Part shown: positions 23,537 through 33,997 of the stretch, in pieces | How the letters are laid out: every line of letters starts with the position of its first letter | Numbering within the stretch: position 1 is the stretch's first letter | Position numbers and translations under genes: made by a program | Assembly: GCA_964016885.1 (NCBI GenBank) | Contig: OZ024741.1 | Span: 267,406,001 to 267,470,000 of the forward strand | DNA length: 64,000 bases | Origin: Eledone cirrhosa | Lineage: Eukaryota | Reading direction: 5' to 3' | The notes under the pieces: model-generated | What the model was told of the DNA's origin: nothing | Database searches by the model: none | The model's input: the letters and a program-made list of their open reading frames with translations, nothing else

Positions 23537-26500
23537 TACCTATCTTCCGGCCTCTCTAGAGAATCGTAAAAGCACATATCGCTATATGCTTTTTCTATGA
23601 AAATTAGTAGTGGGCAGACCAACTTGCATAGAGTGTGAGTAAGTACCGGTTCAACGGAGACGATAAAAACAAATAACGAAACGAAATTAAATTTCGTTTC
23701 GTTTGTAACTCACTTTTGTATGACTGACGCTCAAACAATTAAGTCAAAGATGTACATCCATATATGTATACTGAAATACTAGTATGTATATGAATACACA
23801 CACGTATACATATGTAGATGTACCAAGTTTTTTTCACTGATCACTTTACTGTGAGTGGCCAGCTATTCTGTATGTAAACACACAGACAAACCGGTTTTTA
23901 GAGTCATACTGGTTTTTGAGGAAACACCTTTCCTCTATTCTCCAGAAAGCCAGACAAGGAATATTGAACTAGTTTCGTTGTTGTTACAACTCATCAGCAA
24001 TATTTACCTATCTTCCGGCCTCTCTAGAGAATCGTAAAAGCACATATCGCTATATGCTTTTTCTATGAAAATTAGTAGTGGGCAGACCAACTTGCATAGA
24101 GTGTGAGTAAGTACCGGTTCAACGGAGACGATAAAAACAAATAACGAAACGAAATTAAATTTCGTTTCGTTTGTAACTCACTTTTGTATGACTGACGCTC
24201 AAACAATTAAGTCAAAGATGTACATCCATATATGTATACTGAAATACTAGTATGTATATGAATACACACACGTATACATATGTAGATGTACCAAGTTTTT
24301 TTCACTGATCACTTTACTGTGAGTGGCCAGCTATTCTGTATGTAAACACACAGACAAACCGGTTTTTAGAGTCATACTGGTTTTTGAGGAAACACCTTTC
24401 CTCTATTCTCCAGAAAGCCAGACAAGGAATATTGAACTAGTTTCGTTGTTGTTACAACTCATCAGCAATATTTACCTATCTTCCGGCCTCTCTAGAGAAT
24501 CGTAAAAGCACATATCGCTATATGCTTTTTCTATGAAAATTAGTAGTGGGCAGACCAACTTGCATAGAGTGTGAGTAAGTACCGGTTCAACGGAGACGAT
24601 AAAAACAAATAACGAAACGAAATTAAATTTCGTTTCGTTTGTAACTCACTTTTGTATGACTGACGCTCAAACAATTAAGTCAAAGATGTACATCCATATA
24701 TGTATACTGAAATACTAGTATGTATATGAATACACACACGTATACATATGTAGATGTACCAAGTTTTTTTCACTGATCACTTTACTGTGAGTGGCCAGCT
24801 ATTCTGTATGTAAACACACAGACAAACCGGTTTTTAGAGTCATACTGGTTTTTGAGGAAACACCTTTCCTCTATTCTCCAGAAAGCCAGACAAGGAATAT
24901 TGAACTAGTTTCGTTGTTGTTACAACTCATCAGCAATATTTACCTATCTTCCGGCCTCTCTAGAGAATCGTAAAAGCACATATCGCTATATGCTTTTTCT
25001 ATGAAAATTAGTAGTGGGCAGACCAACTTGCATAGAGTGTGAGTAAGTACCGGTTCAACGGAGACGATAAAAACAAATAACGAAACGAAATTAAATTTCG
25101 TTTCGTTTGTAACTCACTTTTGTATGACTGACGCTCAAACAATTAAGTCAAAGATGTACATCCATATATGTATACTGAAATACTAGTATGTATATGAATA
25201 CACACACGTATACATATGTAGATGTACCAAGTTTTTTTCACTGATCACTTTACTGTGAGTGGCCAGCTATTCTGTATGTAAACACACAGACAAACCGGTT
25301 TTTAGAGTCATACTGGTTTTTGAGGAAACACCTTTCCTCTATTCTCCAGAAAGCCAGACAAGGAATATTGAACTAGTTTCGTTGTTGTTACAACTCATCA
25401 GCAATATTTACCTATCTTCCGGCCTCTCTAGAGAATCGTAAAAGCACATATCGCTATATGCTTTTTCTATGAAAATTAGTAGTGGGCAGACCAACTTGCA
25501 TAGAGTGTGAGTAAGTACCGGTTCAACGGAGACGATAAAAACAAATAACGAAACGAAATTAAATTTCGTTTCGTTTGTAACTCACTTTTGTATGACTGAC
25601 GCTCAAACAATTAAGTCAAAGATGTACATCCATATATGTATACTGAAATACTAGTATGTATATGAATACACACACGTATACATATGTAGATGTACCAAGT
25701 TTTTTTCACTGATCACTTTACTGTGAGTGGCCAGCTATTCTGTATGTAAACACACAGACAAACCGGTTTTTAGAGTCATACTGGTTTTTGAGGAAACACC
25801 TTTCCTCTATTCTCCAGAAAGCCAGACAAGGAATATTGAACTAGTTTCGTTGTTGTTACAACTCATCAGCAATATTTACCTATCTTCCGGCCTCTCTAGA
25901 GAATCGTAAAAGCACATATCGCTATATGCTTTTTCTATGAAAATTAGTAGTGGGCAGACCAACTTGCATAGAGTGTGAGTAAGTACCGGTTCAACGGAGA
26001 CGATAAAAACAAATAACGAAACGAAATTAAATTTCGTTTCGTTTGTAACTCACTTTTGTATGACTGACGCTCAAACAATTAAGTCAAAGATGTACATCCA
26101 TATATGTATACTGAAATACTAGTATGTATATGAATACACACACGTATACATATGTAGATGTACCAAGTTTTTTTCACTGATCACTTTACTGTGAGTGGCC
26201 AGCTATTCTGTATGTAAACACACAGACAAACCGGTTTTTAGAGTCATACTGGTTTTTGAGGAAACACCTTTCCTCTATTCTCCAGAAAGCCAGACAAGGA
26301 ATATTGAACTAGTTTCGTTGTTGTTACAACTCATCAGCAATATTTACCTATCTTCCGGCCTCTCTAGAGAATCGTAAAAGCACATATCGCTATATGCTTT
26401 TTCTATGAAAATTAGTAGTGGGCAGACCAACTTGCATAGAGTGTGAGTAAGTACCGGTTCAACGGAGACGATAAAAACAAATAACGAAACGAAATTAAAT

Positions 26501-27913
26501 TTCGTTTCGTTTGTAACTCACTTTTGTATGACTGACGCTCAAACAATTAAGTCAAAGATGTACATCCATATATGTATACTGAAATACTAGTATGTATATG
26601 AATACACACACGTATACATATGTAGATGTACCAAGTTTTTTTCACTGATCACTTTACTGTGAGTGGCCAGCTATTCTGTATGTAAACACACAGACAAACC
26701 GGTTTTTAGAGTCATACTGGTTTTTGAGGAAACACCTTTCCTCTATTCTCCAGAAAGCCAGACAAGGAATATTGAACTAGTTTCGTTGTTGTTACAACTC
26801 ATCAGCAATATTTACCTATCTTCCGGCCTCTCTAGAGAATCGTAAAAGCACATATCGCTATATGCTTTTTCTATGAAAATTAGTAGTGGGCAGACCAACT
26901 TGCATAGAGTGTGAGTAAGTACCGGTTCAACGGAGACGATAAAAACAAATAACGAAACGAAATTAAATTTCGTTTCGTTTGTAACTCACTTTTGTATGAC
27001 TGACGCTCAAACAATTAAGTCAAAGATGTACATCCATATATGTATACTGAAATACTAGTATGTATATGAATACACACACGTATACATATGTAGATGTACC
27101 AAGTTTTTTTTTCACTGATCACTTTACTGTGAGTGGCCAGCTATTCTGTATGTAAACACACAGACAAACCGGTTTTTAGAGTCATACTGGTTTTTGAGGA
27201 AACACCTTTCCTCTATTCTCCAGAAAGCCAGACAAGGAATATTGAACTAGTTTCGTTGTTGTTACAACTCATCAGCAATATTTACCTATCTTCCGGCCTC
27301 TCTAGAGAATCGTAAAAGCACATATCGCTATATGCTTTTTCTATGAAAATTAGTAGTGGGCAGACCAACTTGCATAGAGTGTGAGTAAGTACCGGTTCAA
27401 CGGAGACGATAAAAACAAATAACGAAACGAAATTAAATTTCGTTTCGTTTGTAACTCACTTTTGTATGACTGACGCTCAAACAATTAAGTCAAAGATGTA
27501 CATCCATATATGTATACTGAAATACTAGTATGTATATGAATACACACACGTATACATATGTAGATGTACCAAGTTTTTTTCACTGATCACTTTACTGTGA
27601 GTGGCCAGCTATTCTGTATGTAAACACACAGACAAACCGGTTTTTAGAGTCATACTGGTTTTTGAGGAAACACCTTTCCTCTATTCTCCAGAAAGCCAGA
27701 CAAGGAATATTGAACTAGTTTCGTTGTTGTTACAACTCATCAGCAATATTTACCTATCTTCCGGCCTCTCTAGAGAATCGTAAAAGCACATATCGCTATA
27801 TGCTTTTTCTATGAAAATTAGTAGTGGGCAGACCAACTTGCATAGAGTGTGAGTAAGTACCGGTTCAACGGAGACGATAAAAACGATTCTCTAGAGAGGC
27901 CGGAAGATAGGTA

Positions 27914-27958
27914 AATATTGCTGATGAGTTGTAACAACAACGAAACTAGTTCAATATT
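27914..27958 (+). ncRNA. Minimal type I HHR, first of 3 plus-strand copies (also 28382-28426, 28850-28894)
   Basis: Same motif read directly on the plus strand; predicted cleavage between 27951 and 27952. Confidence 0.92.
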
Positions 27959-29215
27959 CCTTGTCTGGCTTTCTGGAGAATAGAGGAAAGGTGTTTCCTC
28001 AAAAACCAGTATGACTCTAAAAACCGGTTTGTCTGTGTGTTTACATACAGAATAGCTGGCCACTCACAGTAAAGTGATCAGTGAAAAAAACTTGGTACAT
28101 CTACATATGTATACGTGTGTGTATTCATATACATACTAGTATTTCAGTATACATATATGGATGTACATCTTTGACTTAATTGTTTGAGCGTCAGTCATAC
28201 AAAAGTGAGTTACAAACGAAACGAAATTTAATTTCGTTTCGTTATTTGTTTTTATCGTCTCCGTTGAACCGGTACTTACTCACACTCTATGCAAGTTGGT
28301 CTGCCCACTACTAATTTTCATAGAAAAAGCATATAGCGATATGTGCTTTTACGATTCTCTAGAGAGGCCGGAAGATAGGTAAATATTGCTGATGAGTTGT
28401 AACAACAACGAAACTAGTTCAATATTCCTTGTCTGGCTTTCTGGAGAATAGAGGAAAGGTGTTTCCTCAAAAACCAGTATGACTCTAAAAACCGGTTTGT
28501 CTGTGTGTTTACATACAGAATAGCTGGCCACTCACAGTAAAGTGATCAGTGAAAAAAACTTGGTACATCTACATATGTATACGTGTGTGTATTCATATAC
28601 ATACTAGTATTTCAGTATACATATATGGATGTACATCTTTGACTTAATTGTTTGAGCGTCAGTCATACAAAAGTGAGTTACAAACGAAACGAAATTTAAT
28701 TTCGTTTCGTTATTTGTTTTTATCGTCTCCGTTGAACCGGTACTTACTCACACTCTATGCAAGTTGGTCTGCCCACTACTAATTTTCATAGAAAAAGCAT
28801 ATAGCGATATGTGCTTTTACGATTCTCTAGAGAGGCCGGAAGATAGGTAAATATTGCTGATGAGTTGTAACAACAACGAAACTAGTTCAATATTCCTTGT
28901 CTGGCTTTCTGGAGAATAGAGGAAAGGTGTTTCCTCAAAAACCAGTATGACTCTAAAAACCGGTTTGTCTGTGTGTTTACATACAGAATAGCTGGCCACT
29001 CACAGTAAAGTGATCAGTGAAAAAAACTTGGTACATCTACATATGTATACGTGTGTGTATTCATATACATACTAGTATTTCAGTATACATATATGGATGT
29101 ACATCTTTGACTTAATTGTTTGAGCGTCAGTCATACAAAAGTGAGTTACAAACGAAACGAAATTTAATTTCGTTTCGTTATTTGTTTTTATATATTATAT
29201 ATATATATATATATT

Positions 29216-29274
<59 letters not shown>

Positions 29275-29837: not shown

Positions 29838-32800
29838 TTGTCCGCCATTGCAAAAGGCCATCAATTCAAAATTTTGAAGAGAGAGGAAAAGAGAGAAGTG
29901 ATCTATGAACTTGTAACATCTCACTGACCCCCCCCCCCCCGTCACCACACTAACAATAACGCCTACACTCGCTCTCCACCATCACCACATTACTCTAAGG
30001 TCGCTGTCCTGTCCCCTGTTGACATACTGCTGACTCTCTTTTGATGTATGTATGTGTATATACATATGTGTATGTGTGTGTATATGTATATCTCAGTGGA
30101 TGCGACCAGATTTCAACACAGCAACAACTACAACAACAACAGCAGCAACACCAACAACAACAACAACAGCAACAACACCATCGTCTGTGTTGAATGTGTG
30201 TGTATGTATTTGTATATATGCGACAGCAATAACAGCATCAACACCATTGTCTGCAGCAACAGCAGCAGTGAAATGAAGGACAACAACAACAGTAACAACT
30301 ACAATAACAACTACAGCACCAACAACTGCCACCACCATCACTGACCATCCACCACCACCACGCTGATACCATCCACCACCACCACACTGACACCATCCAC
30401 CACCGCCATTACCAGCGTAAACAAACAATTATTATTGTTATTGTTATTATATACAAGCCGAACTGGACTGGGAAAGGTCAACAGTTGACAAGATAGTGAT
30501 TTTGACGATTTTGATTTTGATTTTGATTTTGACTTTGATTTTGATTTTGTATCAGTACTGTCGGTAATATATGTATATATATATATGTTTGTGAGTGGTG
30601 TGCGTGATTGTATGCATGAATGAGTGTTGGTATGTGTGGTTGTGGTTTGTATGCATGAGTATTAGTGTGTGAGTCGTGTCAATAAGTTTCCTTTTTTTTT
30701 TTTTTTAATGACCATGCTGTAAAATGGAGGGGTAGAGAGGGCCCTTGAGTCTAGTAAGACATCCTCTCTAGTGCTGGTGGCACAAATAAAAGCACCCAGT
30801 CCATGCTGTAAAGTGGCGCTGGTGTTAGGAAGGGCATCCAACCAGTGTATCAATGCCAAAAAGCTTATCAGCACAGCAACAAAACAGCATAGAAAAATAT
30901 GAAGACGTCGCATCTCAGAGTTGCAACACTTAATGTTGGCACTCTCAGAGGTAGGTCTGCTGAAATAGCGGAGATGCTGGAGAGAAGGCAGGTGGATGTG
31001 TGCTGCGTGCAAGAGGTGAGATGGAGGGGTGCCTCTGCGAGACTAGTCGTAGGCAAGCGTCTTAGCTATAAGCTATTCTGGGTAGGTAAGGATGATGGGT
31101 TAGGGGGAGTAGGCATTTTCCTGGCTGAGAAATGGATCAATAAGACAATAGAGGTAGTTCGAGTTAGTAATCGAATAATTAAGCTTAGATTAGTTGTAGG
31201 TAGGAGACTACTGACAATCATCTCGGTCTATGCTCCCCAAGCAGGCCTAGGCAAAGATGAGAAAGACTGCTTTTATGAGCAACTTTTGCAAACAACCACA
31301 ATGACAGAGGACGGAGACATCGTTATGCTAGCAGGAGACTTCAATGGTCATGTTGGACAGCTCCAGGATGGTTACACTGGGGTACATGGTGGGCACGGTT
31401 ACGGTTCAAGAAATGAAGAAGGAGTGGGACTTCTTGAATTTTGTGATGCAAGTACATTGACTATTTGCAACACAAACTTCCAGAAACCTGCCAATCACCT
31501 AATAACCTACAAATCTGGTGAGCACATAAGCCAGATTGACTTCCTGCTAGTTAGGCAGCGGGACAGGCAGATAGTGTCTAATACCAAGGCATACCCTGGG
31601 GAAGAATGTACCCCACAGCATAGGTTAGTTGTTAGTGATATCTCAGTAAGCAAGAGATGGAATGAGACATATAGGAAGGTGTGGAGAAGAAAGGTCTGGA
31701 AGCTAAAAGACCTTTCACTAAAATTCAAATTTAGGAAAGCCCTTCAAGATGTATATGACGAAAAAGAAGACGATTTAGAGACGTATGACATAGATAATAA
31801 CTGGAAGTTCTTACGTGACAACTTGCTGAAGGCTACTGATGAAACCTGTGGCTGGAGCAGAGCTCCAACCAGACAGAGAGTGACCTGGTGGTGGAACAGC
31901 AGTGTAGATAAGGCTATTAGAGACAAAAGACTAGCATGGAAGGCTTGGAATAAGGGTGGGAGTAGGGAAGAATATACAGCCACTAAGAGAGAAGCTAGAC
32001 GTCAGGTGTACTTAGCACGCAGGGAGGCAGAGAGTAGGAGGTTTGCCAATGTTCTGCGACGGGAAGATCAGAGGCGTGCGGTGTTCCACATTGCAAGGCA
32101 GTGTGTCAATGCAAATCAGGATGTTGTTGGTGATAAATGTGTCCGGGATGATGCCGGTGTACTTAGTGTCACGAATGACCAGAAAAAGGAGGCCTGGAAA
32201 TGTCATTATGAGAGACTGATGAATGTGGAGAACGAATGGGAGAGAGAGAAATTACCCTTGGTAGATCCGACAGAGGGACCAGCTATTGAGATTGACGAAT
32301 ATAGGGTCCAAGAGGCGATTAGGGAAATGAAAAATGGTAAGGCGGCCGGACCATCGGGAATAGTTGCTGAGATGCTGAAGGCATCAGGGGACGTAGGCAC
32401 TAAACTGGTTGCACGCATAATCAATCAGGCTATATATGGTGGTGTCATACCCAAAGACTGGTGCAGCAGTATTCTCATAAATTGCTACAAAGGTAAAGGG
32501 GATGCTTTGGAGAGGAGCAATTATAGGGGTATAAAACTGATAGATCAGGTTATGAAAGTGGCAGAAAGGATTCTAGCACAACTAATTAGAGAAAGGGTCA
32601 AACTAGATGAGATGCAGTTTGGTTTTGTGCCTGGGAAGAGTACAACAGATGCCCTCTTCTTGGTGAGACAAATGCAAGAGAGGTTCTTAGAGAAGAATAA
32701 GCCACTATACTTAGCCTTTGTTGACCTAGAGAAGGCCTTTGATAGGGTACCCCGATCTGTCATCTGGTGGTCCCTAAGGAAGCTGGGTGTTGAGGAATGG

Positions 32801-33997
32801 CTTGTAAGGACAGTGCAAACTTTGTACAGAGGTACTCTCAGTAAAGTCAGGGTAGGAATGGAGTTTAGTGAGGAATTCCAGATACAAGTAGGAGTACATC
32901 AGGGTTCGGTCCTCAGCCCGCTCTTGTTCATTATAGTCCTCCAAGCCATAACAGAGGAGTTTAAGACTGGCTGTCCATGGGAACTTCTCTATGCTGACGA
33001 TCTGGCTCTTATGGCAGAATCAGTAGAGGAGCTAGAGAATAAATTCCGGCTATGGAAACAGCAGTTGGAAGCAAGAGGACTGAGAGTAAATCTAGCTAAG
33101 ACAAAAGTGTTGATGAGTAGAAAAGAGGACAAAACCCTGATTCCGTCAGGGAAATGGCCATGTTCGATATGCAGAAAAGGAACTGGCATAAATTCTATAA
33201 AATGCACACAATGTAGGTCCTGGGTACACAAGAGATGTAGCGGGATAGCAGGCAAACTAACAGGTAGGGAAAAATATGTATGCAGTAGATGTACAGGGAA
33301 ATTAGACAGTAGAAGTCGCACTGATAGACACATTTTTCAAATGCGAGAGGGCGCTATAGAAGTGGTGGATAGCTTCCGGTACCTAGGAGATCAGATTAGC
33401 ATGGGAGGAGGGTGTTCCGAGGCCATAGTATCTAGAATAAGGACGGGTTGGAAGAAGTTTAGGGAGCTGCTTCCTCTGTTGACGAAGAAGGGTTTCTCCC
33501 TGCGTACGAAAGGCCGGTTGTATGATGCCTGTGTGAGGAGCGCGATGCTGCATGGTAGTGAGACATGGGCAGCTACCGCAGAAGATATGCGACGGCTGGA
33601 GAGAAATGAGGCAAGCATGCTCCGTTGGATGTGCAGTGTAAATGTGCGTGAACGACCCAGCATAAATGTGTTGAGAGAGAAACTGTGTCTGAGAGGGATA
33701 GAATGTAGTGTACGGGAGAGGAGACTGAGGTGGTATGGACATGTGATGCGCATGGAGGATGACCGATGGGTGAAGAAGTGCCAGGAAATGCCAGTTGAAG
33801 GAAGACGTGGTAGAGGTAGACCACGAAAAACATGGGCGGAGGTGGTGAGAACAGACCTCAGATCATTGAAGCTCACGGTGGAGATGACGAGGGACCGTGA
33901 CGAGTGGAGAGATGCTGTGCTGAATAAGACCCGTCCCACCCTTGCAAGCAGGGAAAAGCGGACGTAAAATGATGATGATGATGATGATGATGATGAT
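29838..33997 (+). mobile_element. Full-length RTE-clade LINE family A, including a probable ~1 kb 5' UTR
   Basis: Intact ORF and (GAT)n tail; the upstream module 29838-30445 recurs upstream of the minus-strand copy (60600-61455). Confidence 0.9.
30899..33967 (+). CDS. RTE LINE polyprotein, 1022 aa: APE endonuclease + reverse transcriptase with PHD-like Cys/His insert
   Basis: ATLNVGTL, CVQEVRW, AGDFNGHVG, SQIDF, QHRLV (APE); FVDLEKAFD, GVHQGSVLSP, YADD, FRYLG (RT); RGRPRKTW C-terminus; no stops. Confidence 0.96.
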   Translation: MKTSHLRVATLNVGTLRGRSAEIAEMLERRQVDVCCVQEVRWRGASARLVVGKRLSYKLFWVGKDDGLGGVGIFLAEKWINKTIEVVRVSNRIIKLRLVVGRRLLTIISVYAPQAGLGKDEKDCFYEQLLQTTTMTEDGDIVMLAGDFNGHVGQLQDGYTGVHGGHGYGSRNEEGVGLLEFCDASTLTICNTNFQKPANHLITYKSGEHISQIDFLLVRQRDRQIVSNTKAYPGEECTPQHRLVVSDISVSKRWNETYRKVWRRKVWKLKDLSLKFKFRKALQDVYDEKEDDLETYDIDNNWKFLRDNLLKATDETCGWSRAPTRQRVTWWWNSSVDKAIRDKRLAWKAWNKGGSREEYTATKREARRQVYLARREAESRRFANVLRREDQRRAVFHIARQCVNANQDVVGDKCVRDDAGVLSVTNDQKKEAWKCHYERLMNVENEWEREKLPLVDPTEGPAIEIDEYRVQEAIREMKNGKAAGPSGIVAEMLKASGDVGTKLVARIINQAIYGGVIPKDWCSSILINCYKGKGDALERSNYRGIKLIDQVMKVAERILAQLIRERVKLDEMQFGFVPGKSTTDALFLVRQMQERFLEKNKPLYLAFVDLEKAFDRVPRSVIWWSLRKLGVEEWLVRTVQTLYRGTLSKVRVGMEFSEEFQIQVGVHQGSVLSPLLFIIVLQAITEEFKTGCPWELLYADDLALMAESVEELENKFRLWKQQLEARGLRVNLAKTKVLMSRKEDKTLIPSGKWPCSICRKGTGINSIKCTQCRSWVHKRCSGIAGKLTGREKYVCSRCTGKLDSRSRTDRHIFQMREGAIEVVDSFRYLGDQISMGGGCSEAIVSRIRTGWKKFRELLPLLTKKGFSLRTKGRLYDACVRSAMLHGSETWAATAEDMRRLERNEASMLRWMCSVNVRERPSINVLREKLCLRGIECSVRERRLRWYGHVMRMEDDRWVKKCQEMPVEGRRGRGRPRKTWAEVVRTDLRSLKLTVEMTRDRDEWRDAVLNKTRPTLASREKRT

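Follow-up and report, generated by a model that had tools for sequence, protein, structure and literature searches.

The origin of the hammerhead 'satellite' arrays in animals has been debated since the newt repeats, with reverse transcription of RNA circles set against local amplification of DNA. Tandem cDNA made on circular templates by Penelope-like elements (PLEs) is a published hypothesis (PMC7229834, PMC4209133; also PMC7761336), and a preprint by Li et al. 2026 (bioRxiv 10.64898/2026.07.22.740005) connects retrozymes with the terminal repeats of PLEs and comes down on the side of local amplification. The 64,000-nucleotide stretch of the Eledone cirrhosa genome analysed here (the window) carries a 5.9 kb tandem array of a 468-bp unit, with 9.86 copies at 23269-27884 and 2.80 inverted copies at 27883-29191, and the question is how such an array, inverted at one end, was made. 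The original prediction held that the inversion has the exact geometry of twin priming during target-primed reverse transcription, and that a single reverse transcription run copied more than 12 units.

The array in the window and its repeat unit

The long block (23269-27884) is composed of nine full units plus 402 nt, eight of the units being identical and one having two extra T, and on the forward strand it terminates in ...GACGATAAAAAC at 27884. The reverse complement of 27883-29191 begins with ATAAAAAC and is an exact match to the unit concatemer over 1,309 nt. Flipping the short block gives the predicted 8-nt overlap with the long block; two of the eight nucleotides (AC, 27883-27884) are microhomology at the inner junction and two (AT, 29190-29191) are part of the target-site duplication (TSD). 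The hammerhead sense is the minus strand in the long block and the plus strand in the short block, with 13 copies in total. With phase 1 of the unit set to the first base after the predicted hammerhead cut, the long arm has its inner 5' end at phase 297 and its outer 3' end at phase 230 (the no-tail start site), and its ten hammerhead copies run from 23492-23536 to 27706-27750; the short arm has its inner 5' end at phase 400 and its outer 3' end at phase 304 (the tail start site). The junction in the window is known from the assembled sequence, no piece from four sequencing runs compared with it spans it, and the right flank of the array is itself a repeat. The features are as follows (from the sequence unless stated otherwise; a dot means no strand).

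22974-23268,., left (TA)n target tract
23258-23268, +, target-site duplication, left copy, 11 nt, ATATATTATAT
23269-27884, -, long arm, 9.86 units of 468 nt
27883-27884,., junction where the two inner 5' ends meet, microhomology of 2 nt (AC)
27883-29191, +, short arm, 2.80 units
27914-27958, +, type I hammerhead motif, read by eye (repeats at 28382-28426 and 28850-28894)
27952-28419, +, cut-to-cut monomer, predicted circular RNA, from folding
29118-29191, +, 'tail' of 74 nt, bounded by the two fixed start sites
29190-29200, +, target-site duplication, right copy, 11 nt, ATATATTATAT
29192-29271,., right (TA)n target tract

The 74-nt tail contains a 13-bp hairpin and is terminal on the short arm only. 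The first AT of the right TSD copy also corresponds to phases 303-304 and probably served as a 2-nt match between primer and template.

The hammerhead motif comprises stem I (AATATTG/CAATATT), CTGATGA, stem II (GTTG/CAAC), GAAA, a short palindromic stem III and a GTT site, with the cut predicted after 27951. Rfam at gathering thresholds did not call a hammerhead in the window. In support of the motif, stem II has undergone a compensatory change in 10 of 100 loci, and eight of 100 have a GUC cut site; the cut triplet is GUU in the other 92, and stem III is weak. The cut-to-cut monomer folds at -156 kcal/mol (z -10.6). The unit has 36% GC, lacks LTR structure and codes for no RT or GIY-YIG protein, the longest ATG open reading frame being 20 aa, so that it does not qualify as an autonomous PLE. 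As judged from its sequence the element is a non-LTR retrozyme, having one type I hammerhead per tandem unit, a short non-coding low-GC unit and dispersed copies with TSDs; self-cleavage and an RNA circle are predicted. One sequencing run of another organism contained a single contig of 503 letters that runs once round the unit.

Other elements were observed in the window. A LINE fragment beside the array (21665-22972), between TA tracts, has true twin-priming geometry: its RT frame lies on the plus strand at 22221-22973 (Pfam RVT_1) and continues on the minus strand from 22222 downward, with an overlap of 14 nt (22959-22972 is the reverse complement of 22209-22222). An uninterrupted LINE frame of 1,024 aa with endonuclease, RT and PHD-finger matches is present at 30893-33967, and a weak tRNA-like match at 1572-1629 is likely SINE-derived.

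Arms, outer ends and the twin-priming reading

Many near-identical arrays are present in the 3.0 Gb genome, with 6,242 matches to the hammerhead core and 2,293 exact ends of the type at 29191 (304 ends), each against 0 in the control; the family thus comprises over two thousand insertions in Eledone cirrhosa. We analysed 133 distinct loci, made up of three sets and four further loci. Set A consists of the 30 that were scored among 384 candidates, picked regardless of their ends; set B of 60 stretches covering the first 62 of the 2,293 end matches, one being a duplicate; and the fresh set C of 40 of the 47 additional loci among 70 young-subfamily matches. Sets B and C were selected for the 304 end, and only the opposite end is informative there. 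The duplicate (L098, a copy of L097) was dropped from later counts and is included in the 62 arm pairs and 57 complete loci of sets A and B given below. The L097 and L098 arrays are identical and lie 17.7 kb apart, as a segmental duplicate or an assembly duplicate.

Arm pairs of opposite orientation diverge in the hammerhead sense in 94 of 94 cases (62/62 in sets A and B, 32/32 in set C). This two-armed layout is far beyond chance, and the polarity of the inversion is tied to the hammerhead sense elsewhere in the genome, as had been anticipated. Moreover, one 304 end and one end near phase 230 (225-234 in most loci), 74 nt apart and one on each arm, were found in 52 of the 57 complete loci in sets A and B and in all 31 complete loci in set C. 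For set A on its own the count is 19 of 20; the twentieth locus is an insert in three pieces, and here too 230 and 304 are the outermost ends. Many seemingly one-armed inserts conceal a 230 arm too short for alignment. The permuted start points expected elsewhere were not found across the sampled loci, and the outer end at 29191, which twin priming would make an internal priming site set by where the first cDNA stopped, is instead one of two family-wide fixed start sites. That the ends do not coincide with the cleavage site was correct; the outer ends miss it because the RT start sites are fixed.

The 230 arm is the longer one in 33 of 83 loci and the 304 arm in 50, one arm exceeds the other by more than one unit in 18 and 27 loci, respectively, and arm lengths correlate weakly (rho 0.34). 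Since either arm may be the longer and the two are equivalent, the window array likely represents two RT runs (9.9 and 2.8 units) and not one run of more than 12 units. Inner ends are spread evenly over the unit (p=0.21 and 0.26), and two or more letters are shared at the inner join of 21 among 38 young loci, where 18% would be expected, a count that BLAST overlaps may inflate. In the fresh set, 4 of 31 inner ends of 304 arms lie near phase 231 (p=0.049, unplanned test); in some events one RT may stop on meeting the start site of the other.

In a pre-set test on fresh loci, the inner end of the partner arm was within 10 nt of the 304 site in one of 31 cases (expected 4.5%, p=0.76), and the same continuity as in the window was seen in six of 82 pooled loci (p=0.16). 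Roughly one locus in 20 looks continuous on flipping because the 304 end is fixed and the inner ends are scattered; such continuity is no commoner than chance predicts, so the 8-nt overlap carries no evidential weight. What stands of the twin-priming claim is insertion through RNA with priming at two ends, and what falls is the geometry as its proof. Inner ends showed no enrichment at the hammerhead cut in the 40 fresh loci (3/62). Post hoc enrichments of inner ends at the partner's start and at the cut had been noted and vanished on retesting in these 40 loci.

L1 twin priming (described in PMC2837659), i.e. priming on one continuous RNA with the second primer internal where the first cDNA stops, is very improbable here. 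Polarity, TSD, junction microhomology and the overlap in the window fit it, and tail-only 304 arms (L073, L106, L139 and L156) would suit a version with fixed sites, but as a general mechanism it is refuted by the fixed outer ends and the chance-level continuity, and no A tail separates the outer ends from the adjoining (TA)n. Even less probable is that one cDNA folded back and primed itself, endonuclease trimming of the tail then yielding the second arm, as proposed for PLE inverted repeats in PMC3846280. Palindromic junctions, with both inner ends at the same phase, do occur in 10 of 83 loci (p=0.004), several of them within hairpins of the unit, and the weak correlation of arm lengths points the same way; however, 73 of 83 junctions are not palindromic and either arm can exceed the other by over a unit. 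Fold-back is thus not the general route but may account for roughly one event in ten. Least probable of these is that the layout reflects an assembly artefact, or an inversion that a satellite underwent later at the DNA level. In favour of this it counts that the window junction is seen in the assembly only; against it, the polarity is shared by all 94 pairs, and fixed ends and TSDs occur on many chromosomes.

Target sites and the probable Penelope-like machinery

The 11-nt TSD that frames the array in the window supports a single insertion event, as had been proposed. Among the 27 of 83 loci that are informative in this respect (flank not pure AT), 23 have a duplication of 11-13 nt, compared with 1.3 in shuffled pairings (maximum 5). 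PLEs are described as having head-to-head arms, of which one bears a tail, and a short TSD of 8-10 bp (PMC3846280), a preference for (TA)n is reported for some PLE clades (PMC8557442), and work with a purified anole PLE showed that both strands are cut and extended at AT-rich DNA and that reverse transcription begins in vitro at two RNA sites bracketing the tail (PMC11167929). The retrozyme family combines head-to-head arms, only one of them tailed, with AT-rich or microsatellite targets and a short TSD; such arms, a one-arm tail and (TA)n targets are the signature of PLEs and not of L1 twin priming.

Sequences matching GIY-YIG are numerous in the genome (150 scored of 10,597 candidates), and we examined 28 such loci. 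Four PLE frames were scanned, of which two match both the RT and the GIY-YIG families and two match one of them. Four autonomous PLE copies belonging to four families (L189, L192, L193 and L194) have two arms with a tail on only one, the tails being about 38-64 nt as read by eye. In addition, a retrozyme arm stands opposite a PLE arm at L086 (1502-5240), and at L143 (6487-9750) a single (TA)n site contains a retrozyme fused with the terminal region of a PLE; two different PLE families are involved. These chimeras fit shared machinery, and nested insertion followed by deletion could also have produced them. L068 was considered as a third chimera and dropped, its PLE piece being decayed and the join lying at a TA run.

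A comparison of the unit with six PLE 3' regions gave no sense-strand similarity and one low-complexity antisense match in 12 comparisons, a search for a partner PLE in 20 short and eight long GIY-YIG loci (of the 10,597 candidates) gave no similarity, and a DNA search with the tail region returned retrozyme copies only. The insertions were likely made by a Penelope-like RT/GIY-YIG protein and not by an L1-type enzyme, and PLE-type insertion of RNA from two primers is very likely. Apart from this, a minimal hammerhead-like motif was noted in the terminal region of the PLE family of L190, L191 and L193, other hammerhead-like motifs in neighbouring repeats (loci L188, L189, L190, L191, L193 and L194), and a 459-bp tandem pair at L188:7510-8419.

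The template, the length of the arrays and known systems

None of 53 loci has fixed differences specific to one arm, the two arms being concordant in all 53. A private substitution present in every one of at least three copies was found in 15 of 74 young loci, in up to 19 copies and in both arms, e.g. in 11 copies across both arms in L046, in 14 copies in L128, and as three changes in 18-19 copies in L101; 'private' means private among the 74 sampled loci, and an unsampled homogeneous parent array would look alike. These data support the predicted repeated copying of one unit.

Array-fixed changes, read in hammerhead sense and determined for 116 loci against their three nearest loci each, include 48 A>G and 12 T>C. 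By locus the skew is modest (24 vs 12 of 116 loci, p=0.044), and minority changes within arrays are symmetric (48 A>G vs 44 T>C). The A>G changes cluster: in L161 all seven changes in one stem-loop region are A>G and are present in both arms, and in L106 there are 12 A>G among 14 changes, recurring in two or three successive units. The 5' neighbour of the A>G site is U or A in 27 of 34 cases (p=0.038), which is the preference of ADAR. From the clustering we infer A-to-I editing of the template RNA; alternatively, the skew may stem from biased RT errors that became fixed in an earlier generation. The A>G marks and the array-fixed changes together suggest a hammerhead-sense RNA of which one unit was copied more than once. 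Insertion through RNA in this sense, as predicted, is well supported, and a single-unit template copied as a rolling circle is moderately supported. A monomer RNA circle probably served as the template. A G25T change (unit phase 25) recurs in scattered units of L051, L091 and L125, which belong to different subfamilies, and is possibly an RT or sequencing hot spot; with only three loci it was rejected as a mark of damaged template.

With respect to array length, 29 of 57 arms of at least four units have no variant, 19 have singletons only and nine have repeated variants. Higher-order patterns with periods of about 7, 6 and 2 occur in the long arrays L071, L114, L125, L135 and L160 (period 7 in L071, an array of ~30 units; periods 6 and 2 in L114; period 2 in L160). 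A monomer circle alone does not give such repeated or periodic minority variants, and a minority of arrays has undergone later DNA duplication or stems from multimeric templates. Among young loci the 304 arms have a median length of 2.57 units, longer than the 1.31 units of the set of mixed age (p=0.009), and across 14 loci the oldest subfamily attains no more than 2.7 units. This is the reverse of slow growth, although subfamily activity could also explain it, and arrays are likely born full length.

Two readings of the template and of array length have to be weighed against copying of a circle. It is unlikely that the same two-primer insertion had as its template a long linear multimer transcribed from a homogeneous parent array. 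Homogeneous long arrays exist and would yield homogeneous transcripts, hammerhead cleavage is dispensable for insertion in vitro (PMC11167929), cleavage may be slow given the GUU site and the weakness of stem III, and the 304-arm ends near phase 231 fit one RT reaching the other's start on one RNA. On the other hand, many distinct haplotypes are fixed in every unit, hence each passed through a single unit somewhere, the edit cluster of L106 is repeated in successive units, inner ends are not enriched at the cut, and arrays made in this way could never outgrow their parents. Quite unlikely is that a short two-armed insertion of PLE type was lengthened later by unequal crossover or slippage (local amplification is proposed in the Discussion of bioRxiv 10.64898/2026.07.22.740005). 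The repeated or periodic variants in nine of 57 long arms, several of the longest and older arrays among them, agree with it; the lack of arm-specific fixed differences, the 48 of 57 long arms with no variant or singletons only, and the greater length of young arrays than of the oldest subfamily speak against it.

The reading that we favour, and consider probable, is a head-to-head retrozyme insertion made in one event by a PLE RT-endonuclease that cut (TA)n and copied a monomeric RNA circle from both ends. Hammerhead cleavage of tandem transcripts, followed by ligation, would give circles of 468 nt, as in other animal retrozymes (PMC7229834), and some circles would be A-to-I edited, given the clustered A>G changes. 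A PLE protein would then make a staggered cut with 11-nt 3' overhangs, corresponding to the observed TSD, after which one 3' end would prime at phase 304 and the other at about 230, where the outer ends are observed. Each RT would displace its own cDNA for 0.02 to over 15 rounds, the range of arm lengths observed, and the two cDNA ends would be joined, often via the microhomology seen at the junctions. A minority of long, mostly older arrays would later be enlarged through DNA-level duplication. The wider proposal, to which we give a little better than an even chance, is that PLE RT acts as a two-headed rolling-circle copier, with one ribozyme-made circle, two fixed starts at the two ends of a staggered cut and 15 or more rounds (>7 kb) through strand displacement, that arrays are full length at birth, and that A-to-I edits are carried in every repeat of both arms.

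The family supplies genomic tests that separate reverse transcription of circles from local amplification, and the exact start sites, tail and target are named for an in vitro PLE assay. It is also relevant to the still unexplained inverted repeats and tails of PLEs, and it points to an RT that is processive and displaces strands, as well as to germ-line fixation of RNA edits; if true, A-to-I edits on a single RNA would leave a heritable record of RNA editing in every repeat. Two-armed retrozyme arrays with fixed starts, array-fixed variants or editing marks were not found in the literature, i.e. mostly the main texts of open-access papers (figure S9 of PMC7229834 and the preprint supplements may bear on this).

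With the non-LTR retrozymes of metazoans (PMC7229834, by Cervera and de la Pena 2020; the review PMC7761336; the preprint by Li et al. 2026) the family has in common an AT-rich non-coding tandem unit with one type I hammerhead each, strong self-pairing, dispersed copies, and PLEs in the same genome; the unit described there is about 170-400 nt versus 468 nt here, and the accessible descriptions of retrozymes are without head-to-head arms, two fixed starts, a TSD constant at 11 nt, private variants fixed throughout an array, and A>G marks. With L1 twin or dual priming (PMC2837659) it shares two target-primed cDNAs and a microhomology join inside a TSD, and it differs in having no poly(A), two fixed starts, no inversion continuity and a likely circular template. 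Finally, in comparison with endonuclease PLEs (PMC3846280, PMC8557442, PMC11167929, PMC4209133), it has no ORF and arms with up to 15 or more identical units, no sequence relation to the sampled PLE ends was found, and its tail is 74 nt against a published 30-40 nt; alike are the inverted arms, the one-arm tail, the short TSD, the (TA)n target, the presumed cutting and extension of both strands, the two RT starts bracketing the tail, and the hammerhead upstream of both.
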